Counted from the first letter of the stretch, positions 8,290 to 61,079 are shown. The stretch: 64,000 nt of DNA from an uncultured Polynucleobacter sp. (GCA_964402975.1 CAYOEM010000002.1:156729-220728), one strand, 5' to 3'. Numbers and translations are program-made. Notes: generated by a model from the sequence alone, not told the origin.

Positions 8290-9126
8290 TCACTTGGCAG
8301 TCGTTAAACGACCAATCATGTGAGGCTTTACGCCGTTTTTCTCCAGAACACGCATCTGCATGACTCCGTCCTCCTCCCACCAGCGGTACCGAACGGTCGA
8401 AGGTAAAAAGACCGGAAGCTTAAACTCCGATTCAAAAGTTATATTATCTGCCATCATTTGAACGGGGTGCATGGCACAAGAGCGGCCAACGATCCACATA
8501 CCGTGAAGCATCATGCCCTTAAATCCAAGTAGTTTTGCCGTGATGGTACTCAAGTGAATGGGATTGATATCGCCCGATAGCCTTGCATATTGGCGTGCCA
8601 TACCTGGAAGCACGTCCCACGAATCTTCATGGGCGCCGACATGATTATGAACCGGGTTGGGGGCCCTGGCACCATCGCGCTTTCGCACCGAACTTCGTCG
8701 ATACATGGTCAGGTTCGTCGTCGAGATGACCTCATCGTTGACGATCGCCTCGGTTATCATGTCAAACTCGACGCCACGATCGACATCACGGTGACCCTCG
8801 ATCCAGCAGCGGTAGGCGACGGGCTCATCGAGCTTTATGGCGCGCTTTTGCGAGATTCGGGTGCGCAGGTGAACGGTTCCCATCGCTTGAAAGGGGAACT
8901 TAGGGTCTGACAGGTGACGTAAGTGGGTCATAAAGGTGGCCACCGCAGGGAAAACCGGGGGAAGAACACCATAATCCTGCTGTTTCCAGCAGGCACGAAG
9001 ACCATGATACAGGCTCCGGCTCGAAGGTTTAGCCTTATGGGTGGTCTCAATGCGGGCAATCGTCTCACCCTCTTTGAGGCCGGGTTTCGCCTTCATGGCG
9101 CGAACATAAGTCATGATAGAAAACAT
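8290..9126 (-). CDS. MaoC-like (R)-specific enoyl hydratase/dehydratase, double hot-dog
   Basis: 278 aa with the hydratase-2 motif region SGDINPIHLS...GFKGMMLHGMW. It lies immediately upstream of, and co-oriented with, the FabG4-like reductase (25-nt gap). Confidence 0.8.
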   Translation of the reverse strand: MFSIMTYVRAMKAKPGLKEGETIARIETTHKAKPSSRSLYHGLRACWKQQDYGVLPPVFPAVATFMTHLRHLSDPKFPFQAMGTVHLRTRISQKRAIKLDEPVAYRCWIEGHRDVDRGVEFDMITEAIVNDEVISTTNLTMYRRSSVRKRDGARAPNPVHNHVGAHEDSWDVLPGMARQYARLSGDINPIHLSTITAKLLGFKGMMLHGMWIVGRSCAMHPVQMMADNITFESEFKLPVFLPSTVRYRWWEEDGVMQMRVLEKNGVKPHMIGRLTTAK

Positions 9127-9276
9127 TATGGAAATCCTTGTCTTTTTTTGGCCGAGAACAGGTGGAAATTCTACTTAATTTCGTCTATCCTCGCCCCTCC
9201 AAAAATTGATTGTTTTTTGCGCACAAGGCTCGCACCCCAAAGACCCCTCATTATATAGATAAGGAAACCTTTAAAA

Positions 9277-16887: not shown

Positions 16888-17420
16888 GCTTTCGAAACCT
16901 AGTTCTAGTCTGTTTGTTAATGGCAGGAGTTGCTTGGATAGCCGTGGTTAAATTTGACGGCTCACGCGACTCGACCTCAACGGAGACAACTACGACATTT
17001 GATGCCGACCCGAAGCAAAACACCGAAGCTGCCGGTGGCGAAGCGTCGACCGAGCAAGCTGAAGTAAAGCCTACCGATATGGCCTCTCCCGACCAAAATG
17101 AGACGGTAAAAACCAAAGACCTTTCGGTGGGAGCAACAAAACTCGCCACGGAGGGAAGTCGCATCACCTATAACGTCGTTATCAAACTAATGGACGGCAA
17201 GGTTGTCTTTGATTCCTACAAAGACAAACCCTGGACCGGCACTCTCGGGAATGGTTCAATCCTAACTGGGCTGGACAAGGGCATTCGAGGCATGTACCAG
17301 GGCGGAAAGAGGGCTATTTGGATTCCCTCATACCTAGCGTACGGCCCCTTTGGAATAAAGCCGCACATCCCACCTCACGCGAAACTCTACGCTGAGGTGG
17401 AACTTTTGACGGTGTTTTAA
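16884..17420 (+). CDS. Membrane-anchored FKBP-type peptidyl-prolyl cis-trans isomerase
   Basis: The C-terminal domain GSRITYNVVIKLMDGKVVFDSY...TGLDKGIRGMYQGGKRAIWIPSYLAYGP...LYAEVELLTV is a classic FKBP fold. I prefer the GTG at 16884 (GGAGGGGAG RBS, GTGA overlap with the upstream stop) over the track's TTG at 16845. Confidence 0.8.
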   Translation: MSFRNLVLVCLLMAGVAWIAVVKFDGSRDSTSTETTTTFDADPKQNTEAAGGEASTEQAEVKPTDMASPDQNETVKTKDLSVGATKLATEGSRITYNVVIKLMDGKVVFDSYKDKPWTGTLGNGSILTGLDKGIRGMYQGGKRAIWIPSYLAYGPFGIKPHIPPHAKLYAEVELLTVF

Positions 17421-17440
17421 AGATCTAAAAATCTATCGCA

Positions 17441-46435: not shown

Positions 46436-46996
46436 TTATTGAACCTGTCTAAGATCGTAGTCGATGCCGGCTATAAATAACTCCGCTGATATCAGACTGC
46501 TATTTTCAAGATCCCATGTGACCACTAAATAGCGATTCCACCGAAAGCGCTTCTCGCCCAGACCAGGATACTTGGGATTCAGTGGACCGACACAACTGCC
46601 ATCCGGGTCATCCGTTGGCAGGAAGAATTTAACGTATTGTAACGGGGTCGAATCATCGTCCATACCACCGCCACGCATCCGCACGCATGACAATTTATAA
46701 GTTTGCCCCCCCACTATAAGTTCTGACTCAGCCCGAAGTGGCAGGTGATCAAAGAACTCAACATGTGGCCTGCCCGTAAGCGGATCTATATAACTGTTGA
46801 CTAGCGGCGTATGTTCCACTGACTGGACAGGTGTAAACCGCAAGCGCACATCCGTCTTGCCAGTAATCGTATCGAATTCAAAATTGTAATCCGAAGGAAT
46901 ACCAGAGAGGTAATCACGCACCTTAAAGGGCTCCGCCTGCCCCGTAGCACTAAAGAGCCCCAAAATAATCAGCAATGTAAAACAATCCCTTAACAT
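46436..46996 (-). CDS. Hypothetical secreted protein
   Basis: Track ORF is 46436..47023 (TTG). The ATG at 46996 gives MLRDCFTLLIILGLFSATGQAEP, a signal peptide. No family recognised. Confidence 0.6.
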   Translation of the reverse strand: MLRDCFTLLIILGLFSATGQAEPFKVRDYLSGIPSDYNFEFDTITGKTDVRLRFTPVQSVEHTPLVNSYIDPLTGRPHVEFFDHLPLRAESELIVGGQTYKLSCVRMRGGGMDDDSTPLQYVKFFLPTDDPDGSCVGPLNPKYPGLGEKRFRWNRYLVVTWDLENSSLISAELFIAGIDYDLRQVQ

Positions 46997-47579
46997 CGGT
47001 GCAGGCCCCTCCCCGGACGCCAACGGACTTACTTATACCATAAATCAGCTGGCGGTGGTTAAATTTTAATCAAACCACCCTCTCGCGAGAGAAAACGCCT
47101 AAATGTATAATTTTTAGGCACTTAGGTTGGAATATCTCGAAGGACCACTCTAAATTCAATAAAATGAACCTGAATCTGTTCAATATACCACCGTCATCCA
47201 GGTTAAGTATTTGTATTTATTTTTATTTTTACAGATCTAAAACTTGTTCATTATACATCTGTTTTTTGAACGTCAGGGTCGATATATAACCATCTGATAT
47301 AATTTTGATTATTAACTAATCAGCAACGCCGGCAGTTTTGTTGTCGGCGACCTTAAAATAAACGCGCACCGGCATATTCGGTGGTGTTGTTTATTACCCG
47401 AGCCTGGGCTGCCTTAAAAGTAAACATTTAAGCTGCCGTTTGGGAGGAGGGGGGCGCAAAAAAATCGGGACTACCGGTAGTGATCTGAATTTATTGGTTT
47501 TTTATTGGATCTTAATCGGCAAAAAAACATTAAAGTTCACAAGACCCTCGGCCGGACTCTTTGCCTAGGAGGAACCGCC

Positions 47580-47828
47580 ATGTTGAAGTTTATGGTGGAA
47601 GGGTTGGCCTTGGGCGCTCTTGTAGCGTCGGGCTGTAAGCCCTCAGGCTCATCCACAGTAGGGTTTGGTCGTTACTGGGATGCAATTCCAGCGTCAAGGA
47701 CACTTAGGCAGTATTTTGAAGTGATGCCGGAGGCGCACGCTCAGAGTGCAGAAAGGACCAATGAGCTACGAGCTCAATTTAAAAGCCAAACACCGAGGAG
47801 CGCTCCTCCGTTAGTGCCAATTAGGTAA
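47580..47828 (+). CDS. Small hypothetical lipoprotein (82 aa)
   Basis: The ATG at 47580 is preceded by TAGGAGG; the track ORF starts upstream at 47505. MLKFMVEGLALGALVASGCKPSG is a signal peptide plus lipobox. A strong terminator follows. Confidence 0.5.
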   Translation: MLKFMVEGLALGALVASGCKPSGSSTVGFGRYWDAIPASRTLRQYFEVMPEAHAQSAERTNELRAQFKSQTPRSAPPLVPIR

Positions 47829-47839
47829 TTCCCTACACA

Positions 47840-47870
47840 AAAGCCAGCCCCTGAAAGGGCTGGCTTTTCT
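47840..47870. terminator. Bidirectional rho-independent terminator
   Basis: AAAGCCAGCCC - CTGAAA - GGGCTGGCTTT forms a perfect 11-bp stem with T-rich tails on both strands. It lies between convergent genes and marks the 3' end of the eight-gene minus-strand cluster. Confidence 0.85.
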
Positions 47871-47887
47871 CATATTAGTAACCTAAC

Positions 47888-48901
47888 TCACTCCAACCAA
47901 AACATCCGCATGCGGACAAATTCCCGAGTCACAGCGTCTTCAATTGCGCAGACGGAGCCGACCACGTTTTTCTCCAGGCCATCACGCCACGCGGTCTCTG
48001 TTTCGTCGCGTTTTGCCTCGCAAGCTTCCATGGTTTCAAACTTGATTGAGGTCAGTGTCGTTGCCAACGGCTGCATGACCAGTCCGGCAGTATAGATGTG
48101 AATATTGGACGTGTAGGTGGATCCACCACAGAAAAATATCGCCGTTTGCCCATCAGCTCTTGCAAATACTTCGCGCATCTCTTCGCGGTTTTTTTCACAA
48201 GCTTCAAGGCTCTTAAACTGACCTTCGCTGTACTGAACGATGGGAAGCTTATTAGCCGAGTAATACATGGCATGAATGATGGCACGATTTGGGGTCGCCT
48301 TGATGTTGACTTTTGTATACTTGGCGCCATAAGCATCAAGCGTTGTCTTTAAGTCAGTTTTCAGGCTAGCAACGTCTCCGTTGATGCCATTAAAGAAATC
48401 TCTCGCCAGGTGCTTTGGCGAAAGTTTTGGTTTGCCAAACCCATCGATACGCATCGTCCAACCATTATCAGCTTCTTGATCGCGCCGATCGTGAATACAA
48501 TAGGCGATCAATGGTTCAAGGCCAGTTGCTTCTTTGAAGGTAGCCATATCCTCATCATAGTGCGCCGTGCAGTCTTCAGCCGTATCATATAAAGCATTCA
48601 CGTAGGCATACTCATCATAGGTCGTCACTAACTTGGCAGCGACGGGACGTGAGTACTCAATCACGAGATCATAAGTTCTGTAGGGGTTGTACTCACAGCC
48701 ATGAGTTAGCACGGTGGCTTCCGCAAGATCTGCAAACCGATCCACCACCCAGCTCTCGACCTTCTCACACTGCTCTTTGGTCGCGCCGATGCGAGGAATC
48801 GTGTAGGAGTGCACCTCCGCTAGGGCCGCCGACGAAACAAAAAACAAAAATACTGCAAAAACGTTCTTCATAATCATCCTCATCTTGATGTCATTAGTCA
48901 T
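47888..48901 (-). CDS. Hypothetical secreted protein with four C-x22-23-C modules
   Basis: The signal peptide is MKNVFAVFLFFVSSAALA; the start is ATG 48901 (TAATG overlap with the upstream stop) or ATG 48871. Four homologous modules are present: EQCEKVESWVVDRFADLAEATVLTHGC, EDCTAHYDEDMATFKEATGLEPLIAYC, EACEKNREEMREVFARADGQTAIFFC and EACEAKRDETETAWRDGLEKNVVGSVC. Confidence 0.65.
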   Translation of the reverse strand: MTNDIKMRMIMKNVFAVFLFFVSSAALAEVHSYTIPRIGATKEQCEKVESWVVDRFADLAEATVLTHGCEYNPYRTYDLVIEYSRPVAAKLVTTYDEYAYVNALYDTAEDCTAHYDEDMATFKEATGLEPLIAYCIHDRRDQEADNGWTMRIDGFGKPKLSPKHLARDFFNGINGDVASLKTDLKTTLDAYGAKYTKVNIKATPNRAIIHAMYYSANKLPIVQYSEGQFKSLEACEKNREEMREVFARADGQTAIFFCGGSTYTSNIHIYTAGLVMQPLATTLTSIKFETMEACEAKRDETETAWRDGLEKNVVGSVCAIEDAVTREFVRMRMFWLE

Positions 48902-50445
48902 TACAGAGATTCTTCCAAAAGTTCGATATTACTATGGGACTGCATGGGCCTATGAATTCCCTGGTTGGGGATCTTCAGTTTAATCCCTCGCTTGGTGCGA
49001 CTTCCAATATACGCACCCCCGGGACCTTCCGTATCCAAAGAAAACTTCCCAGTAAACGGATCAAAGGCTGTCTCGGTAAAGGGTTTTCTAACCGTCATAT
49101 CCGTATACCAAAGGTTACCTTGTATTGTCAGAGGAGAAAATGGATCTTTGGAATTCACGGCCCGGTCCGACATGGCAACAATCATATTGACGTTAAGTTT
49201 TCCGTCGCTGAAGTTACCAGTGAGCTTTGAGTCTAACTTCTCAGGCTCAGCAAGCTCAACGACACCCTGAGAAGCCAAAACAAAGTTACCGACAAATCCA
49301 AACCGACGAGAATACCATGCGCCTTCCGCTAGCCCTCCACCAATCCTAGTGATCTTCACGATCATATCGGTAGTGTGGTCAGCTCGATCAAAAACGGGCT
49401 GGGCTGTCATGATATTGAAAGGACGCGGGTCAAATTTTGTATTAATCGACTCATCCGTATCCGTATGTCCGCCGTACCGGATGCTGGAAACTATCGAGAC
49501 CATGAGATTCTCGTTACCATCATCGCCACCGCCTTGGCGGTACGTAGTCACTGAAATATTCATGGCTTGATAGATATCACGCCGCTCGAGATGAACGAAT
49601 CCACTGTAGACCCCTTCGAGTCCAGCACTCGGGGCTCGGTCATTAAGTCGAACGGCCCATTTAGGTTGGCTCACAGGTAGTTTTTTAACTCCAGGACCAA
49701 CGTGCTCAATCGAAGAACGATTATACCGACACTGTCCGCACGTGAATCCCGACTCATCCACATTGCAAGCAAACGAACCGAAGGCTCCGTGAAAATCTAT
49801 ATGGCCTGTAAAAATGTCGTAATCTGCGTCGTGATAGACATTTGTCACGCAAGTGCTGGCACCAATCGGACATCCAGTTCCTCCGTTGTCACCCATCTGT
49901 GCCATGATGATAAACGGTGCGAAAGGGTCCGTACGGTTTGTGGCAATGGGATGAGAGGGGCTTGATTGAACCTGAAAGCGGCGGCCCATACCTTCGCAAA
50001 CACCGCGGTATTCGCCCCACATCTTCTGAACTAGAGGCCTTTCAACATTAACTTCAGACTGCTGGCTTAGCATGAGCTTTCCAACAATTCCGTGGCCAGT
50101 CTTAAGGTTGGCCTCGAGTTGACTGCCGTTAAAGTTATTGACAACAAAATGGAGCTCGCGTTCTGAGCTATCAAAAACTAAAGTGCCGTTTAGTAGGTTA
50201 TAGGTAACGTTATCGTAGTCATAGCTTGCGTACTCATCACTGTTATAGTCGCCAAAATATAAAACAAGAGTCGCGCGAAGTTTTAAAATTCCACCCGATT
50301 CTTGCTCAGTGATGAAATCTAATCTTGCAAGCTGATCTTGCGCCAGGTGTTCATGTCGAAGAACGCCAAGATAGCGCCCAAAAGTCGGCGCCGCCAAGGA
50401 ACCCGTCGACCAAAACAACGCCATCCATATCAAAAATCTTTTCAT
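48901..50445 (-). CDS. Hypothetical secreted protein, 'GDYNS-motif' family (multi-copy)
   Basis: MKRFLIWMALFWSTGSLAAP is a signal peptide. The motif LRATLVLYFGDYNSDEYASYDYDNVTYNL is shared with the 56957..58255 and 58255..59091 products. More degenerate copies follow downstream (IRYGGHTDTDESINTKFDPRPFN; LWYTDMTVRKPFTETAFDPFTGKF). Confidence 0.65.
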   Translation of the reverse strand: MKRFLIWMALFWSTGSLAAPTFGRYLGVLRHEHLAQDQLARLDFITEQESGGILKLRATLVLYFGDYNSDEYASYDYDNVTYNLLNGTLVFDSSERELHFVVNNFNGSQLEANLKTGHGIVGKLMLSQQSEVNVERPLVQKMWGEYRGVCEGMGRRFQVQSSPSHPIATNRTDPFAPFIIMAQMGDNGGTGCPIGASTCVTNVYHDADYDIFTGHIDFHGAFGSFACNVDESGFTCGQCRYNRSSIEHVGPGVKKLPVSQPKWAVRLNDRAPSAGLEGVYSGFVHLERRDIYQAMNISVTTYRQGGGDDGNENLMVSIVSSIRYGGHTDTDESINTKFDPRPFNIMTAQPVFDRADHTTDMIVKITRIGGGLAEGAWYSRRFGFVGNFVLASQGVVELAEPEKLDSKLTGNFSDGKLNVNMIVAMSDRAVNSKDPFSPLTIQGNLWYTDMTVRKPFTETAFDPFTGKFSLDTEGPGGAYIGSRTKRGIKLKIPNQGIHRPMQSHSNIELLEESL

Positions 50446-50465
50446 CGATTCACGTCCTCCCTTTT

Positions 50466-53400
50466 TCAGACTGGCTTCTGCAGCTCAGGCAGATTCTCGT
50501 CTTTTCTAGGTTCAGTGATCCAGCCGACAAAACGGTCTAAGTGCCCTTTGCCTCGTCTAATCCAACGCTCACTGATCACGGCAAACTCTCCGGACTCGAC
50601 TAACAGATACAGAGCGGGCAACACCACAAGGGTTAACAAAGTACTCGTCAATAGCCCCCCAACCACGACCGTGGCTAAAGGACGCTGTACCTCAGCACCT
50701 GCACCCGTAGCAAGGGCCATTGGCAAAAATCCGAGGGACGCTACTAAAGCCGTCATGAGAACAGGGCGCAGCCTCAAAAGACACCCCTGACGAATCGCCT
50801 CCTTGAGCTCAAAGCCCTTTTGGCGCAAATCGTTAATAAACGTAATCATTACAAGGCCATTAAGCACAGCAACTCCGCTGAGGGCAATAAACCCAACAGC
50901 TGCAGAGATACTAAAGGGCATGTGCCTCCAAGCTAGGGATATAATTCCACCACTAAGACCGAGTGGTACCCCCGAAAACACCAGGAATGCATAGTTCATG
51001 GACCCAAAAGCGCTGTACAGCAGCATTAAAATCGCCACAAAGCACAGCGGAACGACGATCATGAGGCGCTGCCTTGCAGCAACCATGTTTTCAAACTGAC
51101 CGCCCCAGGTGATCCACTGCCCGGCTGGAATCTTGACTGAGGATTTAATGGCATCTTGGGCTTCGTTCACAAATGAACCGATGTCCCGACCGCGCACGTT
51201 GGCTTGCACAACGATGCGACGCTTACCATTTTCGCGACTGATTTGATTGGGTCCTTCTACCTTCGCGACAGACGTCAGCTGGCTCAGAGGAACAAAAGCT
51301 GGGCGATCCGTTTCAATGCGGTTATGGTTGTGACCTTTGAGAGCTGCCATCGACATATTTGGCAGCGGTACAGGGAGACTTCTAATAGCAAGTTCATCTC
51401 GTCTCACATTCTCAGGAAGCCTCACGACCAGGTCAAACCGTCTATCACCTTCAAAAACATTACCCGCGGCTCGACCACCTACAGACGCTGCTACGACGTT
51501 TTGAACGGACGCGACGTCAAGATTAAGCCGACCGATTTCTTCACGACGCATTTCAATGCCAAGCACAGGTAGACCACTCGTTTGCTCAACTTTCACATCG
51601 GCGGCACCGCTAATTTGAGACAAAACCGTTGCCACGCGATTTGCAGTAAGCCTCATAGCATCAAAATCATCTCCAAAAACCTTGACCGCAACATCGCTGC
51701 GCACACCAGCGATCAATTCGTTAAATCGCATCTGAATTGGTTGTGTAAATTCAAGCGCCACACCAGGAATCTCAGAAACTGACTTATTGATTTCCGCAAT
51801 GAGGATTTCTTTATCCTTACCTGAATCCGGCCATTTTGATCGATCTTTCAGGATGATAAAAGTATCCGAAAGATTAGGCGGCATGGGATCACTACCAACG
51901 TCGGCTGTCCCGGTTTTGCTAAATACCCGGTCTACTTCCTTAAATTTCATGACCGCGTCTTCAACACGAAGTTGCGACGTCGTACTTTGCTCAATTCCGG
52001 TGCTTGGAATCCGAATGGCGTGCATGGCTATGTCTTTTTCGTCAAGTGTCGGTATAAATTCACTACCAAGCATTAGAAAAATAGCCATCGAAACGGCGAA
52101 AAGTGTGAGGGCCCACCTAACGTATTTTTTTGGCTCACTCAAAGAACGATCAAGAATCGGCGCGTAAAACTTTTGGGCTGAGTGAAAGAGTTTACTTTCC
52201 TTCTCGACCACATTGCGCCCAATAGCTAGGGCAATGACAGCAGGAATATAAGTTAAAGAGAGCAAAAAGGCCGCGCAGAGGGCGAAAATAACTGTTAAAG
52301 CCATTGGCTGAAACATTTTGCCTTCGATACCCGTCAAGGCGAGCAGTGGAATATAAACAGTGATGATTATCGCCTCACCAAAAACACTCGCCTGACGCAC
52401 CTCTTTAGTTGCAAGGGCCACCTCTTCAAGCCTCTCATCAAAGGTTAAAATTCGACCGAGCTCGTGTTGTTTTTCAGAAAGGCGTCGTAAGCAGTTTTCA
52501 ACAATAATGACGGCTCCATCGACGATCAGACCAAAGTCGATAGCCCCAAGACTCATCAGGTTGCCCGAAATCTTACCTTGCACCATCCCGATGGACGTCA
52601 TCAGCATAGACAATGGGATAGCGGTTGCCGTAATCAGGGCTGCCCGGATATTTCCAAGCAGTAAAAACAACACAACAATCACCAAAATTGCACCTTCGGC
52701 GAGGTTCTTTGCCACCGTCTGAATCGTAGCGTCCACAAGCTTCATGCGGTTAAGGACAGGCTTCACACGTACATCAGGTGGAAGCGAATCAGACATATCT
52801 TTTAATTTTTGATCCACGGCTTGAGCAACGGTTCGACTGTTTTCACCCATCAGCATGAGGGCAGTACCTACCACTGCTTCTCGTCCATTAGTTGATGCAC
52901 TGCCGGTTCTTGGCTCCTCGCCAAATCTCACGGTAGCTACATCTTTAATTCTGATAGGCGTACCGTGCCGGGAACCTATAACAATTCCACCGATCTCCTC
53001 GACCGTAAGAATCCGTCCGTCGGCTCGCACTAGCCTGGCCTCGCCGTAATGTTCAATAAACCCAGCACCGATACTTGAATTATTACGCTCCAAGGCATCG
53101 ATAATATCTTGAAAGCTGACACCGTAACCAATGAGTTTAGACGAGTCCGGCTCCACCAAATATTGCTTCACATACCCACCGATGGTATCGATGCCGGCAA
53201 CACCAGGAAGGCCCTTCAACTGCGGCTTAATGATCCAGTCCTGCACGGTACGCAGATAGGTAGCCCTCTCAACCTCGGTCTTAAGCGACTGCCCCTCAGG
53301 GGTGATGTAACTGCCGTCTGCCTGCCAGCCTTTTAGCCCACCTATAGACTTGGCACCCGCTCCACTGGGATGCGCAAATTCAACCGCCCACATGTAAACT

Positions 53401-53822
53401 TCACCAAGGCCAGTGCTTATAGGTCCAAGTTTAAGCTCAACGCCCGTGGGAATTTGCTTGGATGCTTCGCTGATTCGTTCATTGACTTGCTGACGAGCAA
53501 AGTAGACATCAACGTCATCGTGAAATACAGCCGTAATTTGTGCAAAACCATTTCGGGAAAATGACCTCGTGTTTGCCAAACCAGGGATACCAGCAAGGCT
53601 TGTCTCCAAAGGAAAAGTCACCTGCTTTTCCATCTCAAGCGGAGACAACGCAGCACCAGATGCATTAATAACAACTTGCTTGTTGGTAACATCAGGGACT
53701 GCATCTATGGGAAGCTTTGTTAACGATATGGCTCCAAACAAAGCAACAAAGACAGTTAGAGCAATAACCATGTAACGCTGCTTGATCGAAAATCTAAGAA
53801 TTTTTTCCAGCATTAAAAACAT
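50466..53822 (-). CDS. czcA: CusA/CzcA-family heavy-metal efflux RND transporter
   Basis: The N-terminus MLEKILRFSIKQRYMVIA...LPIDAVPDVTNKQVVIN...DVYFARQQVNERI closely parallels CzcA. The TM4 HME signature is AIDFGLIVDGAVIIVEN. It has 12-TM topology. At 1118 aa it has a ~45-aa charged C-terminal tail. Confidence 0.92.
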   Translation of the reverse strand: MFLMLEKILRFSIKQRYMVIALTVFVALFGAISLTKLPIDAVPDVTNKQVVINASGAALSPLEMEKQVTFPLETSLAGIPGLANTRSFSRNGFAQITAVFHDDVDVYFARQQVNERISEASKQIPTGVELKLGPISTGLGEVYMWAVEFAHPSGAGAKSIGGLKGWQADGSYITPEGQSLKTEVERATYLRTVQDWIIKPQLKGLPGVAGIDTIGGYVKQYLVEPDSSKLIGYGVSFQDIIDALERNNSSIGAGFIEHYGEARLVRADGRILTVEEIGGIVIGSRHGTPIRIKDVATVRFGEEPRTGSASTNGREAVVGTALMLMGENSRTVAQAVDQKLKDMSDSLPPDVRVKPVLNRMKLVDATIQTVAKNLAEGAILVIVVLFLLLGNIRAALITATAIPLSMLMTSIGMVQGKISGNLMSLGAIDFGLIVDGAVIIVENCLRRLSEKQHELGRILTFDERLEEVALATKEVRQASVFGEAIIITVYIPLLALTGIEGKMFQPMALTVIFALCAAFLLSLTYIPAVIALAIGRNVVEKESKLFHSAQKFYAPILDRSLSEPKKYVRWALTLFAVSMAIFLMLGSEFIPTLDEKDIAMHAIRIPSTGIEQSTTSQLRVEDAVMKFKEVDRVFSKTGTADVGSDPMPPNLSDTFIILKDRSKWPDSGKDKEILIAEINKSVSEIPGVALEFTQPIQMRFNELIAGVRSDVAVKVFGDDFDAMRLTANRVATVLSQISGAADVKVEQTSGLPVLGIEMRREEIGRLNLDVASVQNVVAASVGGRAAGNVFEGDRRFDLVVRLPENVRRDELAIRSLPVPLPNMSMAALKGHNHNRIETDRPAFVPLSQLTSVAKVEGPNQISRENGKRRIVVQANVRGRDIGSFVNEAQDAIKSSVKIPAGQWITWGGQFENMVAARQRLMIVVPLCFVAILMLLYSAFGSMNYAFLVFSGVPLGLSGGIISLAWRHMPFSISAAVGFIALSGVAVLNGLVMITFINDLRQKGFELKEAIRQGCLLRLRPVLMTALVASLGFLPMALATGAGAEVQRPLATVVVGGLLTSTLLTLVVLPALYLLVESGEFAVISERWIRRGKGHLDRFVGWITEPRKDENLPELQKPV

Positions 53823-54859
53823 CAGTGTTCGTGCTCCGCTGAGCCCTTAGTTAATTCTGATTTCAAAAGAAAACTTCCCGAAGTCGCAATTCGCATGCCT
53901 GGAGTTAATCCTTCCAGCACTTCAATTTTTTTGTCATCCCTGCGCCCGACCCGTACCGGAGTCGCTACTACGGAGTCGTCTTTTTTAACAAACACTGTCG
54001 GTACGCCAGAAATATCCTGCACTGACTCAGCATCCACCGTCACTGGAACTTCACTTTCATCAATGACAATCGCACCAGTCACAAATGTACCAGGACGCCA
54101 TGCCATCTCGGGATTTGGCAAGATCACCCGAGCCATTGCGGTACGTGTATGATCACTGATAGTCGGCGCAACATAAGACAAAACTCCTTCCGCCTGTCTA
54201 CCTGCCGTTTGATCCATGATGCGCACTCTTTGACCTGCCTTGGTTTTGGGCAAGTCTGCCGGATAAATATATAAATCGACCCAAACCTGCGAGAGATCAG
54301 CCACGACAAACGCCTCATCTGTATTTCCAATCACCTCACCTAAGGCGACGTTTTTTTCGATAATGACGCCATCAAGCTGGGAACGCATCTCAAACGGAGC
54401 AAGATTGGCGTTGTTTTCAAATATCGCGAGTGTCTCGCCCTTTTTTACGACATCTCCAAGATTTTTCAAAACCTGCCGAACAACACCAGAAAACCTCGGA
54501 ACCATGTGAGCTAGTTTGTCGCCATCAAGCTTGATTTCCCCAGGAACTTTAAGCTCCACAGCTAACTTACCGATAGCAGCGTCGGCGAAGTTCACGCCGT
54601 GAGCGGTCAGTTCCTCTTCGCTTCTATGTATCACCTCTGCTTCATGTTGATCGTGCTCTAACTGTGCAAGTTTCCACTGCCGCCAACCAATGTATGAACC
54701 ACCTCCAACAACACCAAGCAATAACACTCCGTATACAATCCGACCGATCCTAGGATAGCGGTGTAAGAAACTCGTGGATGCATGAAACATTCGAAGGCAG
54801 CCGTTTAGAGACGCAACGAACAATCTACTTAACCGTCCTAAGATTTTCTTCATCATCAT
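53822..54859 (-). CDS. Efflux RND periplasmic adaptor (membrane fusion protein)
   Basis: It has an N-terminal TM anchor, lipoyl/beta-barrel motifs (VKKGETLAIFEN, GQRVRIMD) and a C-terminal VFVKKDDSVVATPVRVGRRDDKKIEVLEGL. Its stop overlaps the RND start (TGATG). Confidence 0.8.
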   Translation of the reverse strand: MMMKKILGRLSRLFVASLNGCLRMFHASTSFLHRYPRIGRIVYGVLLLGVVGGGSYIGWRQWKLAQLEHDQHEAEVIHRSEEELTAHGVNFADAAIGKLAVELKVPGEIKLDGDKLAHMVPRFSGVVRQVLKNLGDVVKKGETLAIFENNANLAPFEMRSQLDGVIIEKNVALGEVIGNTDEAFVVADLSQVWVDLYIYPADLPKTKAGQRVRIMDQTAGRQAEGVLSYVAPTISDHTRTAMARVILPNPEMAWRPGTFVTGAIVIDESEVPVTVDAESVQDISGVPTVFVKKDDSVVATPVRVGRRDDKKIEVLEGLTPGMRIATSGSFLLKSELTKGSAEHEH

Positions 54860-56151
54860 GACCCTCCTCCGGAAATCTCTTTAACTAGAAGCCTACGGCC
54901 GATTGTGTTCTCCAACCCAAACCTCTCGTCGTGCCAAGTCAGCAGAGAGTCAACATAACGGCGTCTGGATTCAATCGCCATGTCGATCGCAGCGGCGTAA
55001 TCAAGCCCTGTTTTCACGCCAGCCCGATACTCGCGAGAGGTGGCTTCTTTGTATTTTGCTGTTTTTTTAACGTTATCAGACTCTGCGCGCAGTCTTTTCT
55101 CCATGAGCATCAATTTTCTAACATGTTGCTCGACCTTATTAAGTAATTCCGCTGAAGCCTCGCGAAGCTTTTCGTCGGATTGGCTTTTTCTCGCTATCGC
55201 ACTCCGCCGCTCGTTAATGGTCGACAAACCAGAGAACACATCCAATTTAGCGGTCAAGACCAGATACGTTGCGGGAGTGTTTTTACTTGCTACTGCCGCT
55301 GTTCTCTCCCCCAATGGCAACCAACCGTTTCGAGCTTCAAAATCAACCTTAGGCAGGGACCCAGACAACCATTTCGCCGTCTCCACATCTGACTTAGCTA
55401 CATTGATGGCAGCTTCTTTTAGCGCAAATGCTTTTTCGTGGGCTTTACTTATAATTTGCTCGCCTGGCTCACCAAGCTCATATCGAGGAATCTGGCCAGA
55501 AAATGTAACCGCTTGACCGATGTCGTGACCTAAAAGACGATTAAACGCAGCCTTCTCGATATCTAGAGCCATTTTGGCATCAGCAAGTTCAGAATCGATT
55601 CTTGACTGTCTCACCTCAAAAGCAACGTAGTCACCTTCAGATGCCATACCAGCGCCGCGGCGCAGTCGAACATCCTTCAAGGCTGCACCATTAAGCTCTG
55701 CGGCTTCGCCCCACTCTTTTAATGACTTTTGGGCACCAAGAATCTTGAAAAATCCCGCTTCGACTTCTAGCGCTGTCGAAAATTTAGCGGCTTGCAGTTC
55801 AAGCTCTGCTTTAGACGCTTCAAGGCTGGCTAACTGAACGGCACGCCTGTCAGCAAACCCGTTGAAGAGATTCCAAGATGCATAGCCGTAGGCAAGTCTC
55901 TCAGACTGCTCTCCATAAGCGGGCATCTTCTCAAACCCACTAGCAAAACCAATACGCGGAAGAAATTCAGACCTTGCGACACCTCGATCCGCCTCGGTCT
56001 CTTGAACTTTCGCTTGAAGGGACCTAATACGCGGTGATCGATCAAGAGCAATTTCAACAGCTTTTTCGAGCGAAAAAGGTGCCTCAGCCCCTTTTAGGCA
56101 AACGGGAATGAGCCACCCAATTAAAAAAATGATTTTAGGGGATCGTCCCAT
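54856..56151 (-). CDS. TolC-family outer-membrane efflux protein
   Basis: After a signal peptide comes FSLEKAVEIALDRSPRIRSLQAKVQETEADRGVARSEFLPRI, the typical OEP N-terminal repeat, with a second OEP repeat downstream. It overlaps the adaptor gene by 4 nt. Confidence 0.8.
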   Translation of the reverse strand: MGRSPKIIFLIGWLIPVCLKGAEAPFSLEKAVEIALDRSPRIRSLQAKVQETEADRGVARSEFLPRIGFASGFEKMPAYGEQSERLAYGYASWNLFNGFADRRAVQLASLEASKAELELQAAKFSTALEVEAGFFKILGAQKSLKEWGEAAELNGAALKDVRLRRGAGMASEGDYVAFEVRQSRIDSELADAKMALDIEKAAFNRLLGHDIGQAVTFSGQIPRYELGEPGEQIISKAHEKAFALKEAAINVAKSDVETAKWLSGSLPKVDFEARNGWLPLGERTAAVASKNTPATYLVLTAKLDVFSGLSTINERRSAIARKSQSDEKLREASAELLNKVEQHVRKLMLMEKRLRAESDNVKKTAKYKEATSREYRAGVKTGLDYAAAIDMAIESRRRYVDSLLTWHDERFGLENTIGRRLLVKEISGGGS

Positions 56152-56177
56152 GATCTATTCGCCGCCTTTATCTAAAT

Positions 56178-56960
56178 TTAGAGAAAAACATCCGCAGCCA
56201 GCGTAACGCCGTTCCCCTTCCATTCAGCCTTCTTAGAAGCACCTGAGACATTGAAGACCCCAGCGCTTATTCCACCAAGAAAACTACTTTGCCCCGATAG
56301 AGAATAACGAAGGCCCCCGGAAAACTTTGTAACCGGCGACCAGCCACTTTGTGAAATGCCGTCTAAGTTGCCGGCCACCTGGGTTAACATCATGCCACTA
56401 CCTAAAGAAATCCATGGGGAAACGCCAAATGAGGACTCGCCGTTGCCGGAAGTCCCAAGACGAGCGGTCGCAATAACAGGTAAAACATGAGCTGAAATGT
56501 TATCTCTAAAATCCTGCTTCAATGATCTTTGATAGACCGCCTGAGCACCATCGTAGCCAAGATAAGAAAAATCTAAGCCTGCGCGCGCTCGAATCATCCC
56601 GAACCAAACGGCCCCAGTCGGATGCCCAACCCAAACGGCCGGAGCAATTGCCGAAGATGCGCCACCACTAAGCGGGATCTCGAAATAGTCATTATGAGCT
56701 TTAAAGGTTTTAAATTGATGGAGATCAAACGAAGGTTCAATCGCTAGGATTTGGACCCCAACTTTTTCGATTCGTTCTGATTCAGTTGACGCGCCGTCTT
56801 GATAGGATTTAATGAGATTTGGATCGATACGCATTTCCGGCACTGGTGGCTCTGCCGGCTCTTCTTTCACATTTTGCTTTTTACGGGCAAACGCCTCACC
56901 GGGAAAAGACATCAAAGCAGTAAAAATAGTCAAACCGCTGATTATATTTAATAGTTTCAT
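56178..56960 (-). CDS. Hypothetical secreted protein, possibly outer-membrane beta-barrel
   Basis: MKLLNIISGLTIFTALMSFPGEAFA is a signal peptide. The mature part is Gly/Ser/aromatic-rich with alternating strands. The C-terminus ...VTLAADVFL is hydrophobic but not Phe/Trp-terminal. Confidence 0.45.
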   Translation of the reverse strand: MKLLNIISGLTIFTALMSFPGEAFARKKQNVKEEPAEPPVPEMRIDPNLIKSYQDGASTESERIEKVGVQILAIEPSFDLHQFKTFKAHNDYFEIPLSGGASSAIAPAVWVGHPTGAVWFGMIRARAGLDFSYLGYDGAQAVYQRSLKQDFRDNISAHVLPVIATARLGTSGNGESSFGVSPWISLGSGMMLTQVAGNLDGISQSGWSPVTKFSGGLRYSLSGQSSFLGGISAGVFNVSGASKKAEWKGNGVTLAADVFL

Positions 56961-58255
56961 GGAGCTCCCCCTTGGCAGCGGCCTGCGCGGATATCTGCAC
57001 CATTTGTTCCACTGGCCGTAAGTCGACCATCAAAACCATTGGACTTCAATGCACCAGTAATCGTCATTGGCTCCGTGTTGGGTAGTGTCCTACAAACGCC
57101 CTGAAATCGACCGCTGATATAGTCGAGGTCAACTTGATCGAGAACACAAGTAAAGCGCTCACTAGAATTATAATCTCCAAGATAAAAAACCATCGATGCC
57201 TGCGTTCTGACATCGCCGTCACGACCCACATCGGGTGTAACAGTCATAGTTAGAGCCGCATGCTCCGGCAAGTTAGCCTCGCCGAAATTAACAAGGCAAA
57301 CCTCGTGAGCCCCCGTCCTCGGCGCAGCAAGAGGTAACTGGGATCTAAACGTCCGATCCTTGCCAGCAACAACAGTGCCCATGTGACCAAAAACAGCGGA
57401 CGTCCATTCCCCCGACAAACTCCCCTGATTGAAAGTGAATGTAAAACTCTCGTTCACACCCTCTTTGCGGAGGGTCATTTTCTTGGAAAGCGGATGAAAT
57501 TCCGGATTATCGAACTTCCAAACGGCAAACTCCATTCCGTCGGAGCCCCTGGCTAAACGCACGTCAACCGTAAATTTGACACCTTGGCCCGGAACGTTAT
57601 TGGCTCTAACGAGTAGAGAAGCCGTAAAGTGCACCCCTCTGGCATCATCATCAGCATACCCAACATAACTGCCGGCCAACTGATCTTGCGAGCCTTCCGA
57701 GGGCGAATTACCGCCTCCACTATCCGGTCGCCGTCCATCGCCAGAACCTTTTTTTGACAGTGTCATTGTCCCCGTCATGCTCAGGGCAGTTGCTTGCCAG
57801 CCCCCACTGAAACCTTGCGGCTCAGTGCTCAAAGACAGCTGCATATCACCAAGCCGATCGTCTTTAACCACTAACTCTAGAACTGAACGCTTTGGATCAA
57901 ATTCCCCGCTAGTAATATTCCAGTTATCGTAAGCGTCACTACCTGAGTAGATTCGAAGAAACCCAGATAACTGAGGCATCATGACAGGATCAATACCACC
58001 ATTGTCATTAAAAGGTGCTTCAACGACATCAAGATGCAGCGACACTTGTTTTGAATTCAAGGAAAGACTGTCCATTGTGCCCGTGTAGTCACCCTTAATT
58101 GCCGCTAGCTCTCGTTTTTTTGTTTCAGCATTTAGACGAATCTGCTCACGCCTCACCTCGCGATCCGATAGACGGGATCTGCCGCAAGATACGTCAACAA
58201 ACATCACGACCAGCCAAAAAAAGATACCATACTTAAAAACGCTAATTGTCTTCAT
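56957..58255 (-). CDS. Hypothetical lipoprotein/secreted protein, 'GDYNS-motif' family
   Basis: The hydrophobic N-terminus ends in VDVSCGRS, a non-canonical lipobox. The C-terminal copy is QASMVFYLGDYNSSERFTCVLDQVDLDY. A degenerate N-terminal copy is LRIYSGSDAYDNWNITSGEFDP. Confidence 0.6.
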   Translation of the reverse strand: MKTISVFKYGIFFWLVVMFVDVSCGRSRLSDREVRREQIRLNAETKKRELAAIKGDYTGTMDSLSLNSKQVSLHLDVVEAPFNDNGGIDPVMMPQLSGFLRIYSGSDAYDNWNITSGEFDPKRSVLELVVKDDRLGDMQLSLSTEPQGFSGGWQATALSMTGTMTLSKKGSGDGRRPDSGGGNSPSEGSQDQLAGSYVGYADDDARGVHFTASLLVRANNVPGQGVKFTVDVRLARGSDGMEFAVWKFDNPEFHPLSKKMTLRKEGVNESFTFTFNQGSLSGEWTSAVFGHMGTVVAGKDRTFRSQLPLAAPRTGAHEVCLVNFGEANLPEHAALTMTVTPDVGRDGDVRTQASMVFYLGDYNSSERFTCVLDQVDLDYISGRFQGVCRTLPNTEPMTITGALKSNGFDGRLTASGTNGADIRAGRCQGGAP

Positions 58256-59091
58256 TACGGCGCCCTTGCCGACACAGTGCCAACCAGACCATGAGAGTCC
58301 GTCAGAACGTTGCCCGAGAACACGCCGTCTTGGGACATTGTGCCCTTAAAAGTAATGCCGTAATTATCTGTCTTAGCGGTCAAATAGCGGCTATAGAAAT
58401 TAAATTGAACGTCTGAAAATTTTAATTCCTCGTATTCATTACTGTCATAATCTCCCAGGTAAAATCTCACTTTGCCTGAAATTTTTGTTGTAGGAGGAGT
58501 GGTCGACGTATCTTGAGTCGTAACAAAGGACATGGAAATTCTCTCGGGCAAGTTTACTTCCCGATTGGTAATTGTAATGTTACCCCGGTAGTACCCGGTC
58601 AATGAGCGAACTAGTTGTCCATTGCTCGGGGGCTCTGGCTGGGTGTTTTTGGATGCCTCAAAGCCTCCAAATCTGGCACTAGCCGAGGCGTACCACTTAC
58701 CATCAAAGCTTCCATCACTAAGGAGGTTACCAATAAGTGAGATGTCGTTTCTGTCGTTCTTAATGGTGACTTGGCGGGTAATCAAATTGAACGGACAATC
58801 ATCAAACTCGTAGGTCAAGTATTCGTTAGAATTGAAGTCACCCAAGTAGACTTTCACGTTCGCTGAGATCTTAAGATGACCATCACCGCTGCTGACCGCC
58901 CGAAGATTAATTTCAGCAAACTGATAGTAATTTGAACCATCGTGTTTCAAGACGGCGCGGTAGAGACCAGCAACACTATCATTCTCGGCAAACTGGGACG
59001 CACCATTAGAATCTGCAACGGCCAAGGCTTGCGTGCCTAGTGAATACACAGACAAAACAAAAGTCGCAGCGATTACAGCAATAAAGCGCAT
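58255..59091 (-). CDS. Hypothetical secreted protein with two 'GDYNS-motif' domains
   Basis: I place the start at ATG 59091 (MRFIAVIAATFVLSVYSLGTQALA, a signal peptide); the track ORF extends to 59157. The two copies are KISANVKVYLGDFNSNEYLTYEFDDCPFNL and KISGKVRFYLGDYDSNEYEELKFSDVQFNF. Confidence 0.65.
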   Translation of the reverse strand: MRFIAVIAATFVLSVYSLGTQALAVADSNGASQFAENDSVAGLYRAVLKHDGSNYYQFAEINLRAVSSGDGHLKISANVKVYLGDFNSNEYLTYEFDDCPFNLITRQVTIKNDRNDISLIGNLLSDGSFDGKWYASASARFGGFEASKNTQPEPPSNGQLVRSLTGYYRGNITITNREVNLPERISMSFVTTQDTSTTPPTTKISGKVRFYLGDYDSNEYEELKFSDVQFNFYSRYLTAKTDNYGITFKGTMSQDGVFSGNVLTDSHGLVGTVSARAP

Positions 59092-59228
59092 GAAATCCCC
59101 CCAGGTGGTTATAGCTATCCGAGTATGATTTCTAGTCGCCGCGGATGCTGGGGTCAACCTATTTTAAAGGGATTCTATTGAGAACATGTCTCAATAAAAC
59201 TTCCCCAATATTTTCATGAATTTAAAAG

Positions 59229-61079
59229 TTACTTCTGACAACTTTTTGGCCTCGGCCATCCCTCGGCATCTGCCACCGCAGGCACAAGCTGAAGAGTCCG
59301 ATCAAGCTTCGACAGAGGCACTTTCGAGAGCCTCGGCCCCGTCATGACTAGGCGGGTTCGCATCTGGGGAAGTCCATTGTAGTGGCCATGTTGACCGGCA
59401 GGAACGGGACGATCGGGCACGCCGTTATTCACGGTCTCCGGGTACTTCTCTTTTAGCTTCGCGGGAATATTGGCCCATGTAGCTTTTGCCAGTAAAAGCT
59501 TATCTTCTACCGAATTTTTAAAACCAATCCCGTCATTTGCAAACGCCATGATCCAAGGCATTTGCTGACCACCGAGACCTTCTGTGATGGCTTCTTTGCT
59601 ACCTCTCACTAAGACCTTGGCAAAAATTTTATTTTTGGTGACATCAAACTCCATTTTGCGAAGTCTATCTGCAATCTGTTCAAGATTCACATCAGCGGGA
59701 GGCGGCGTATCGAGACTCCCAGGAGGAGGATAGAGGTACAAAGATCCTCCAGATGTGGAAATGTAGCCTTTCGATGCCAGATCCTCACCGATAACCTTTC
59801 TTGCATTCAGTGAATACGCGATGGCTGACATGCCGTGATCTCCTACGACAAGAAAATCGGCAGAAGCTGGAATGGACTCAATTAATCGTCCAAGCTCTTG
59901 GTCAAATCCCGACAGGTAATCCACCACGATCTTTTCGTTGACGGCGTCTTTGTAGAATCCGTGAAGAAGACTGTCAAGATCCGGAAAGTAGATGAACATG
60001 GCATCTAGGTCGTCCCGTGAAAGCATCGTTCGGTTCACTTTAAAAATATCATCTTGCCTGTGCTTCATCGCGGCCAGGTATGACGGTACGTAAGTTTGCA
60101 TCTTGTAGTCTTTAAGGGATGAAAAGAAAATCTGTTCTTTGTCTATCCACTGTGCAAAGTCACTACCAAAGACTGGCATAACTTGTACCGGCGACACGCC
60201 GACCAAACTCTTATCTTTGATTGAAACGAGCATCAAAGAGACGCCAACGGTACGCTCGACACCTTTGATGGGCGACTTAAAAATAAAATCTTGCGGCGTT
60301 GCCACTTTTAATTCCGGAATGCTTCCCCATGGGCTTGTTCCGCTGACATTTCCGTTGGCATCGGACGTGAGCCTTAATGTGAATGATTTACTGTCGGTTG
60401 ACCTGGCTGGAACAATCACATCAACCGAGGAATTCTTAGCAATTGAAATCATCTGGGTCGACGAACCAGCTGTATCATAGGCAATACCGATGTCAGCCGA
60501 ACGACCGTCTCCATTGCCGTCGATCGACGGATAAAACGCAACACCAACACGTAGTCCATGCCTTCTAAGTCTAGCGACCCAGTTTTCTGGCTCATAAGGC
60601 TTACCAAACCCACTGACCGTTCCACTACCCGTCCAGGGCGAATTATCTAAAACTCCGTGCACACCGGCTGGCGAGCATGTGATGGTCGAAATATGTGATG
60701 GAGCGGTAATCGAAGGATTAATCACGCGAAAGTCACTTTTGCCGCGAGCCTTATTCATGAGCCAAACAAGGCCTTTGCGATGCGGTGCCTTTAGTTTTGA
60801 AACCCAAGGCTCTAGTGCTTTTGGCTGAAAACCATCAAGCGACATCCATACAAGTTTGAGCCTCGATGGCGCTACTGTCTTAAGAACAGGAGCCGCCGGG
60901 GTAACCCCGACTGCTGCAGATTTGGGTACCGGTGCAGGAGCTGGTGACTGTTCTGCTGCGACTGAACTTTTAACTGGTATTGCTTGCTGCGGGTCTTTGG
61001 CCCTCACTGGCTCCTTCGTACAAGACAGCGTCAGAACAACAGCACAGAGGGCGCTAAAAAAACGACGACGGCACACCAT
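59229..61079 (-). CDS. Lipoprotein of the alkaline-phosphatase superfamily (nucleotide pyrophosphatase/phosphodiesterase, NPP-type)
   Basis: AVVLTLSCTKEP is a lipobox, followed by an Ala/Pro-rich linker. Motifs VWMSLDGFQP (metal-binding Asp), PSITAPSHISTITC (Thr nucleophile region) and LVVGDHGM are present. Confidence 0.72.
   Translation of the reverse strand: MVCRRRFFSALCAVVLTLSCTKEPVRAKDPQQAIPVKSSVAAEQSPAPAPVPKSAAVGVTPAAPVLKTVAPSRLKLVWMSLDGFQPKALEPWVSKLKAPHRKGLVWLMNKARGKSDFRVINPSITAPSHISTITCSPAGVHGVLDNSPWTGSGTVSGFGKPYEPENWVARLRRHGLRVGVAFYPSIDGNGDGRSADIGIAYDTAGSSTQMISIAKNSSVDVIVPARSTDSKSFTLRLTSDANGNVSGTSPWGSIPELKVATPQDFIFKSPIKGVERTVGVSLMLVSIKDKSLVGVSPVQVMPVFGSDFAQWIDKEQIFFSSLKDYKMQTYVPSYLAAMKHRQDDIFKVNRTMLSRDDLDAMFIYFPDLDSLLHGFYKDAVNEKIVVDYLSGFDQELGRLIESIPASADFLVVGDHGMSAIAYSLNARKVIGEDLASKGYISTSGGSLYLYPPPGSLDTPPPADVNLEQIADRLRKMEFDVTKNKIFAKVLVRGSKEAITEGLGGQQMPWIMAFANDGIGFKNSVEDKLLLAKATWANIPAKLKEKYPETVNNGVPDRPVPAGQHGHYNGLPQMRTRLVMTGPRLSKVPLSKLDRTLQLVPAVADAEGWPRPKSCQK

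Follow-up and report, generated by a model that had tools for sequence, protein, structure and literature searches.

Gram-negative bacteria detoxify metals in the periplasm mainly by means of heavy-metal-efflux pumps of the resistance-nodulation-division type (HME-RND pumps). In described systems such as CzcCBA and ZneCAB of Cupriavidus metallidurans and IhpABC of Bradyrhizobium japonicum, the genes for an outer-membrane duct, a periplasmic adaptor and the RND pump are found together. Here we describe a cluster of eight genes, G1 to G8, in a 64,000-nucleotide stretch of DNA (the window) from an uncultured Polynucleobacter sp. (GCA_964402975.1, CAYOEM010000002.1:156729-220728), in which a duct (G4), an adaptor (G5) and a pump (G6) are likewise encoded together. 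The likeness extends to the proteins themselves, as G6 passes the family model TIGR00914, has the DFG-DGA-VEN signature and finds ZneA as its best solved match, while the best model for G5 is that of IhpB. The locus differs from the czc, zne and ihp operons in its duct-adaptor-pump order and in having five flanking genes (G1, G2, G3, G7 and G8) without a counterpart there. In addition, unlike in czc, no czcD/R/S/E/I-like gene adjoins the pump and, unlike in IhpABC, the adaptor scores under the IhpB equivalog cutoff.

To our knowledge, only a few helper proteins of HME-RND pumps have been described (CusF, CzcE, CzcI and SilE), all of them from a small number of model proteobacteria. These proteins and PcoE, which serve RND or P-type systems, are small and secreted, have their genes in or next to operons for metal efflux, and are believed to supply the pump with metal or to act as its buffer, which is the role that we tentatively propose for the accessory proteins of the window. 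However, the latter are unrelated in sequence or fold to CusF, CzcE, CzcI and SilE. The OB fold of CusF has five strands and a Met/His site, and SilE is a His/Met sponge without ordered structure, whereas the barrels described below are predicted to be eight-stranded, occur in two to five copies and have no His/Met clusters. Our searches of the literature on Bdellovibrio CzcA or heavy-metal RND pumps, on HME-RND accessory lipoproteins and on IhpABC found nothing on these proteins. The accessory set is without a described counterpart: the pump is of a known kind and its partners are from new families.

Organization of the operon and identity of its pump

The eight genes are consecutive open reading frames (ORFs) on the minus strand, running from 59091 to 47888 and spaced by overlaps of 1-4 nt or gaps of 20-26 nt (Table 1). 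The initial annotation of the window had reported start/stop overlaps at 58255, 56957-56960, 54856-54859 and 53822 and gaps of 26 and 20 nt, all of which were confirmed from the ORF coordinates. Shine-Dalgarno-like sequences were found inside both gaps, which are those between G3 and G4 (26 nt) and between G6 and G7 (20 nt). A further overlap, placed by the same annotation at 48901 between G7 and G8, is possible if G8 has 337 residues but is doubtful because the ATG at 48871 (MKNVF...) has a GAGGA sequence 5 nt upstream, aligns with the N-termini of homologs and is used in a public gene call of 327 aa. With this start the spacing between G7 and G8 would be 29 nt. We interpret the region, based on its sequence, as one operon for a divalent-cation HME-RND pump and an envelope module.

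The components of the pump were readily assigned. G4 is a TolC-like outer-membrane efflux protein (OEP), or duct, with matches to PF02321 over two stretches (Pfam, E = 4.9e-35) and a match to TIGR01844 that is under the cutoff of that model. G5 is a CzcB/IhpB-like periplasmic adaptor, or membrane fusion protein (MFP), as it matched HlyD_D23 (Pfam, 4.3e-32) and scored 109.3 bits against TIGR01730, whose cutoff is 94.9. Its best NCBIfam model was IhpB (NF045680), at 249.7 bits against a cutoff of 450, a score that does not make it an IhpB equivalog. The C-terminus of G5 is AEHEH (window 53822-53840), and the adaptors of this family in the clusters share a conserved AEHxH ending, which is a possible metal-binding tail.

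G6 is an HME-RND inner-membrane pump, scoring 1442.5 bits against TIGR00914 (the CusA/CzcA family; cutoff 701.45). The signature of its fourth transmembrane segment (TM4), AIDFGLIVDGAVIIVEN, fits the DFGx3DGAx3VEN pattern of divalent-cation HME-RND pumps (Czc/Zne/Cnr/Ncc), and the motif DFGLIVDGAVIIVEN was also found in G6. In phmmer searches the best solved match was ZneA (4k0e, 637 bits), followed by CusA at 545 bits, and relative to both of these proteins G6 has inserts of ~40 aa and ~20 aa. In G6, the residues aligned with the Met triad of CusA (M573/M623/M672), which is expected of a Cu(I)/Ag(I) pump, are H, L and E. Based on its being closer to ZneA than to CusA and on the replacement of the Met triad, G6 is predicted to be a pump for divalent cations (Zn/Co/Cd/Ni-type) and not of the Cu/Ag type. 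These results agree with the initial annotation, which had recognized both a CzcCBA-type core of TolC-like, MFP and HME-RND proteins and the TM4 signature, and the pump itself is an ordinary member of the Czc/Zne type.

Sequence families of the accessory proteins

The five accessory proteins had been reported to fit no described family, and our searches were in line with this. Pfam and NCBIfam at E <= 0.1 returned nothing for G1, G2, G3 and G7 and only sub-threshold NCBIfam matches for G8, and searches of the PDB sequences with alignments of G1, G3, G7 and G8 returned nothing credible. The reported absence of His/Met-rich clusters was also upheld: residue counts revealed no His or Met enrichment in any of the five, no cluster was visible by eye, and in this respect the proteins are not like known metal chaperones such as CusF, CzcE and CopC. 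(The adaptor G5, as noted above, does end in AEHxH.) Judged by sequence, the accessory proteins represent three new protein families: the barrel family of G1, G2 and G7, named here after its GDYNS motif, the G3 barrel protein and the four-module G8. All five had been annotated as signal-peptide proteins, which holds for their Sec-type export, although the signal of G2 is instead of the lipoprotein type, with Cys24 as its lipobox cysteine.

The GDYNS motif had been noted in a two-domain protein (G1), in G2 and in multiple copies in G7, and these occurrences proved to belong to one paralogous domain of ~115 aa that is common to the three proteins (BLASTP G1 versus G7, 2e-12; G1 versus G2, 3e-12). 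By hidden Markov model (HMM) there are two copies in G1, three in G2 and two in G7, and in relatives the copy number of G2 is one, two, three or five. An AlphaFold2 model of G1 (pLDDT 89) has two eight-stranded antiparallel up-and-down barrels, and the barrels of G1, G2 and G7 are accordingly predicted to have a calycin- or lipocalin-like architecture.

Comparison of 264 distinct domains identified as conserved three Gly and a Tyr in strand 1, a Gly-x3-Ser-x-Glu sequence in the beta3-beta4 hairpin, one Asn and three further Gly. The hairpin sequence is the core of GDYNS and its Glu is conserved in 94% of domains. The D and N of GDYNS vary among domains, and a calcium-type loop was rejected on this ground. 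Two flavors of the domain were distinguished. In the first, present in domain 1 of G1 and in both G7 barrels, strand 1 ends in His-Glu/Asp, with the His 76-79% conserved; in the second, present in domain 2 of G1 and the last G2 barrels, Asn-Thr-Asn is at that position. Based on the barrel topology, the loop between strands 1 and 2 and the hairpin between strands 3 and 4 would be at the same end of the barrel.

None of the 74 G1 homologs has a Pfam domain, and the G1 alignment had no credible match among PDB sequence profiles, including those of lipocalin, avidin, nitrobindin and DUF3598. Foldseek searches of the PDB with the G1 model found calycin-like matches only, all of them weak: DUF3598, the erythrocruorin linker barrel, hemophilin, HpuA, TbpB/LbpB and nitrobindin. 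The best match of the two-domain query, DUF3598 (2o62), is weak at E = 5e-4, TM-score 0.25 and 8% identity, and matches of single barrels are likewise weak at TM-scores of 0.3-0.47. DUF3598 also consists of two tandem eight-stranded barrels of unknown function; however, it has no sequence-profile match to G1, is cyanobacterial and has no pump context. ZinT/YodA, a lipocalin-like barrel that binds Zn and Cd in the periplasm through His ligands at the barrel surface, is a conceptual precedent only, as it has no sequence similarity to the G1 profile and serves uptake by ZnuABC, not efflux.

The lipobox Cys and the charged helix of G2 are conserved in 28/28 homologs, the helix as S(E/D)RDxRREQxRxxAExKRxEL. 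The lipobox in the window, VDVSC, is atypical, with relatives having LVSC, LSAC or FAGC. From these sequence features G2 is predicted to be a lipoprotein. The G3 family follows G2 in 31/31 loci with DNA at that position. The initial annotation considered G3 a possible outer-membrane barrel, and this now appears probable: based on its ~10 amphipathic strands and a C-terminal tail like the signal read by the beta-barrel assembly machinery (BAM), G3 is probably a small outer-membrane beta-barrel. Such a tail was found in 25/28 G3 members versus 41/830 control ORFs (5%). We infer from these features that G2 and G3 are both located at the outer membrane.

Pfam searches with every member of the G3 family and a PDB profile search returned no match to a described outer-membrane protein family, and the suggestion that G3 is a diverged MFP was rejected, as hhalign found no relation to the adaptors. 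The pairing of G2 and G3 recalls TbpB, LbpB, HpuA and hemophilin with Slam, where an eight-stranded-barrel lipoprotein or secreted protein is encoded beside the gene of an outer-membrane barrel. However, the fold matches of G1 to these proteins are weak (E = 0.01-0.1, TM-score ~0.2), and G3, with ~210 mature residues, has no match to DUF560 (Slam) or to tetratricopeptide repeats (TPR) within its 260 aa, in contrast to the TPR and 14-stranded barrel of ~480 aa that distinguish Slam.

In G7, two further domains alternate with the GDYNS barrels. The B domain has six conserved Cys (C150, C192, C199, C227, C236 and C239) and B' has an NPF...FDPFTG motif, as seen in the alignment. G8, reported as a four-module protein with Cys pairs, was found to have just that organization in both the alignment and an AlphaFold2 model (pLDDT 88), the pairs being C45/C69, C111/C135, C235/C258 and C294/C318. 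Foldseek found no structural relative of G8 in the PDB below E = 0.14, and a relationship to the barrel proteins was rejected as hhalign found none between G8 and G7. G8 is rare, with 27 homologs, and in every case with recovered context its gene comes after a G7-like one. The conserved Cys pairs, together with DsbA/thioredoxin genes among the flanking ORFs of the relatives (five family matches), fit folding in the periplasm.

Distribution and linkage to HME-RND pumps

An exhaustive HMMER search of 1.84 billion protein representatives identified 301 clusters (50% identity) of the barrel family, with lengths that fall into the classes of G1, G2 and G7. A scan of genomes identified 27 loci, all in metagenome-assembled genomes (MAGs). 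Several of these carry generic labels only, and those with an assignment are Pseudobdellovibrionaceae, Bdellovibrionaceae or Bacteriovoracaceae, save one MAG labeled as Polynucleobacter, with two contigs. These two contigs (L012 and L035, of CAZUYQ01, "uncultured Polynucleobacter sp.") are the closest genome relative of the cluster, with G1 72% and G6 81% identical. The CAZUYQ01 contig has probably been mis-binned, because all other assigned carriers are Bdellovibrionota.

G1 was followed by G2, G3 and an HME-RND gene in 26/26 of the G1-seeded genome loci with downstream DNA. Four representative partner pumps, which together cover the pump layouts, all passed the CusA/CzcA HME cutoff. The layout of the window is OEP-MFP-RND. 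In class I loci it is MFP-OEP-MFP-RND, with an RND protein 51-54% identical to G6. In class II loci the order is G1-G2-G3-RND-(170-aa His-rich protein)-OEP and the RND protein is ~30% identical to G6. No MFP gene was detectable by BLAST or HMM in class II clusters (at least 15 loci), and an HME-RND pump without an adjoining adaptor gene is unusual. The ~170-aa periplasmic family encoded between RND and OEP in class II has an invariant His-rich N-terminus, AHEGHxxPGALPxAPHGG...H.EE.H, which makes it a candidate metal chaperone. The class II proteins that were tested, one G3-like and two His-rich, had no above-threshold Pfam match.

The linkage of G7 and G8 is of another kind. In most loci a G7-like gene either immediately precedes G1 or comes after the gene of the duct or of the pump, and the order RND-G7-G8 with overlapping stops and starts recurs in four relatives (L008, L039, L040 and L041), the pumps of the relatives being 65-82% identical. 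However, in a relative whose two flanks are both syntenic with the window (L010/L011), G7-G8 are retained (8439-10993) without G1-G6 or a pump. The flanks in common are ABC-MarC-GSHPx-phosphodiesterase genes at one end and genes for polyphosphate kinase and FabH at the other. Where the window has G1-G6, the stretch from the phosphodiesterase gene to G7 is occupied by DUF1036, BCCT and other, unrelated genes. The sequences indicate the insertion or loss of a six-gene pump block. A scan of metagenomes for G7 relatives with 10 sequences also identified lone, divergent G7-like genes (26-29% identity) on five contigs (L051, L053, L055, L056 and L057), with no pump, G1 or G8 in the flanks (4.8 kb or more, and up to 10 kb, to at least one side); on L055 a G3-like ORF lies nearby on the opposite strand. 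Based on the pump-less syntenic relative and the lone G7-like genes, the eight genes are better read as two modules, the G1-G6 block and a separable G7-G8 pair. Co-occurrence with RND genes in other genomes, which the initial annotation had named as a check, is thus strict for G1-G2-G3 but not obligatory for G7-G8.

Metal-related genes are found around many of the loci. Divergent OmpR-type two-component systems flank ~10 of them, and family matches among the flanking ORFs included P-type ATPase (six), HMA, CDF and ABC-3 (two each), and VIT1 and HupE/UreJ (one each). In L029 the gene of a ZntA-like P1B-type ATPase (17114-19105) overlaps the OEP stop by 4 nt and is therefore in the same gene string as G7-G1-G2-G3-RND. 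A CsoR/RcnR-type repressor gene adjoins L006. Two flanking ORFs, at two of the loci, match the MbnB/TglH/ChrH family of enzymes that modify ribosomally synthesized peptides (PF05114), which hints at a metallophore link.

Possible roles of the accessory proteins

Our preferred reading, which we hold tentatively, is that the accessory genes encode an envelope-anchored module for periplasmic metal handling. In this proposal the lipoprotein G2, with its helix and three barrels, would form an outer-membrane pair with the small barrel protein G3, while G1 and G7 would be soluble multi-barrel proteins of the periplasm and G8 a disulfide-stabilized partner of G7. The ligand of the barrels would be a divalent cation or a metal-ligand complex, held at the open barrel end where the semi-conserved His-Glu/Asp loop is beside the Gly-x3-Ser-x-Glu hairpin. 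The barrels may buffer periplasmic metal, hand it to the pump, with which they would then be in physical contact, or hold it at the outer membrane by the exit duct. The initial annotation had proposed that the coupled proteins work with the pump, as accessory components or as its cargo. The linkage of G1-G2-G3 to the pumps agrees with the first of these roles, which we would likewise assign to them.

Several observations weigh against this proposal. The main weakness is that the barrels do not have a full conserved set of ligands. The only charged residue conserved over all barrels is the Glu, the other conserved positions being Gly or aromatic, and the conserved residues look structural. The His is missing from domain 2 of G1 and from the G2 barrels, the D and N of GDYNS vary, and none of the accessory proteins has a classical metal site. 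ZinT, a known calycin-like metal binder, was outside the top 50 Foldseek matches of G1. No metal sensor gene adjoins the cluster in the window, and a search of the G1 leader with Rfam found no riboswitch, its sole match being a spurious one of the terminator hairpin to a Thr leader. The retention of G7-G8 without a pump and the lone G7-like genes count against a role of these two proteins with the pump, and all relatives are from uncultured MAGs or metagenome contigs.

It is rather unlikely, but deserves consideration, that G1, G2, G3, G7 and G8 are an envelope-protection module that is co-regulated with metal pumps and neither binds metal for the pump nor contacts it. Such a module might let less metal enter, make the outer membrane more stable during metal stress or trap metal on the cell surface. 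A lipoprotein paired with a putative outer-membrane protein suits a structural role, as do conserved barrel residues that are mostly structural; moreover, the G7-G8 pair and G7-like genes also occur away from pumps, and the neighborhoods are general metal-homeostasis islands. Co-regulation alone, however, does not require stop/start overlaps as tight as those observed, nor would it readily account for the adjacency of G1-G2-G3 to an RND gene, which is invariant (26/26) over three pump layouts.

The nature of the substrate could also be other than we propose. HME-like RND pumps that export siderophores have been reported, for example ExsFGH (PMC10760861). By this precedent the pump could export a metallophore or another organic compound, bound by the calycin-like barrels as in lipocalins, nitrobindin and hemophilin. 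The fold class is typical of small-molecule binders, with hemophilin, nitrobindin and TbpB among the weak matches, and the two MbnB/TglH/ChrH matches in the flanks would suit such a substrate. We consider it quite improbable, as G6 has the full divalent-cation DFG-DGA-VEN signature with ZneA as its nearest structure, ion transporters and metal sensors predominate in the flanks, and the conserved barrel residues include polar Gln, Asn, Thr and Glu, which do not suggest a hydrophobic ligand pocket. A very unlikely alternative is that G2 acts together with G1 and G3 as a bridge from the RND pump to the duct, augmenting the MFP in the window and replacing it in MFP-less clusters. This would fit the at least 15 class II loci without a detectable MFP, where the one G3-like and two His-rich proteins tested did not match Pfam above threshold, and the lipid anchor of G2, followed by a long helix and then beta-barrels, is loosely like lipidated adaptors. 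However, a canonical MFP is encoded in the window as well and class I loci have two, G3 and MFP profiles have no similarity, the domains of G2 are predicted to be eight-stranded calycin-like barrels and not the lipoyl, hairpin or beta-barrel domains of an MFP, and the class II MFP could be encoded elsewhere in the genome. The extended form of this idea, that G1-G2-G3 with G7 are an outer-membrane-anchored, barrel-built coupler of pump and duct that replaces the adaptor in the MFP-less Bdellovibrionota clusters, is a similarly long shot. Finally, the suggestion that the five secreted proteins are cargo of the pump has tight gene linkage as its one argument and is hardly credible. RND pumps move small solutes from the periplasm and not folded proteins, and all five proteins have Sec or lipoprotein signal peptides; for these reasons we rejected it. 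Moreover, from what is known of AcrB, CusA and ZneA, folded proteins of two to five barrels and 28-75 kDa are too big to pass through the pump.

Other features of the locus and its surroundings

The initial annotation ended the cluster at a perfect 11-bp bidirectional terminator at 47840-47870. The terminator was confirmed by folding, with its position and stem revised (Table 1): the stem has 12 Watson-Crick pairs and one G-U pair, with a free energy of -26.9 kcal/mol and a z-score of -4.25. An automated terminator scan had skipped the site, as extension of the stem absorbed the U-run. Similarly, the promoter scan skipped the TTGACC-17-TAGAAA site upstream of G1 because the final base of the second hexamer is not T. 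A mechanical list of ORFs gives an alternative start for G1, the TTG at 59157.

The palindrome in the leader of G1 could be a terminator of the upstream phosphodiesterase gene or an operator. It occurs only in two near-identical contigs (L001 and L002). The idea of a conserved operator was rejected, since no other locus has the palindrome and its count does not exceed chance (31/100 shuffles had a single match). The GC content over the cluster is 0.47-0.49, like that of the remainder of the window, and this uniformity does not suggest recent horizontal transfer.

Table 1. Positions of the G1-G8 genes, associated sites in the window and class II loci elsewhere.
Feature	Position	Strand	Description
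G1	58255-59091	-	278 aa; ATG start behind GGGGGGA ribosome-binding site; secreted, two tandem 8-stranded beta-barrels (modeled), domain 1 of His-Asp/Glu flavor, domain 2 of Asn-Thr-Asn flavor
G2	56957-58255	-	432 aa; lipobox ending in Cys24, conserved charged helix (SDREVRREQIRLNAETKKREL), three GDYNS barrels
G3	56178-56960	-	260 aa; signal peptide, Lys/Glu/Pro linker, ~10 amphipathic strands, C-terminal beta-signal; ~210 mature residues
G4	54856-56151	-	431 aa
G5	53822-54859	-	345 aa
G6	50466-53822	-	1118 aa
G7	48901-50445	-	514 aa; secreted; four domains A-B-A'-B', of which A and A' are GDYNS barrels
G8	47888-48901 or 47888-48871	-	337 or 327 aa, starting at 48901 or at ATG 48871; architecture given for 47888-48871: secreted, four beta-alpha-beta-beta, ferredoxin-like modules, each with one conserved Cys pair
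Bidirectional intrinsic terminator	47839-47868	both	13-bp stem flanked by A-run and U-run; common to convergent ORF 47505-47828
Putative promoter	59129-59157	-	TTGACC (59157-59152), 17-nt spacer, TAGAAA (59134-59129); ~40 nt upstream of G1 ATG; read by eye
Leader palindrome	59177-59195		perfect ATTGAGA-N5-TCTCAAT, forming the core of an 11-bp hairpin; the leader, of 137 nt, separates G1 from the phosphodiesterase gene
Class II loci	L005, L013, L014, L016-L018, L021, L024, L027-L030, L032, L034, L037, L043, L045, L050, L059, L060
Class II His-rich protein, examples	L013:10703-11218; L005:15253-15741; L016:15975-16445

The cluster is flanked by a gene for the polyphosphate kinase PPK1 (window 43304-45622), which has all four Pfam domains, and by a gene for a lipoprotein-type phosphodiesterase/nucleotide pyrophosphatase (PF01663; window 59229-61079), which like PPK1 is phosphate-related. 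Polyphosphate is a known metal buffer. Beyond the terminator are a 195-aa ORF with an N-terminal hydrophobic stretch (46436-47023, minus strand) and a convergent 107-aa ORF (47505-47828, plus strand), neither of which had a family match in Pfam or NCBIfam. Further away, a single ORF of 7574 aa occupies 17441-40165 on the minus strand. Its C-terminal 1500 aa match bacterial Ig-like domains (Big_13 and Big_3_4) and its N-terminal 1500 aa had no domain match, and it is probably a giant adhesin-like surface protein.

Significance

The G1-G2-G3 triad is genetically locked to HME-RND pumps wherever it is found, almost always in MAGs of Bdellovibrionota, which are predatory, Bdellovibrio-like bacteria. 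The domains delimited here, the candidate residues for ligand binding and the well-bounded gene sets make the accessory proteins practical to test. If these proteins act with the pump, they would represent a novel mode of metal handling in the space that separates the inner membrane from the outer one, and they might explain how the related class II pumps cope without an adaptor gene. If they should replace the adaptor, this would be a new architecture for RND efflux machines.

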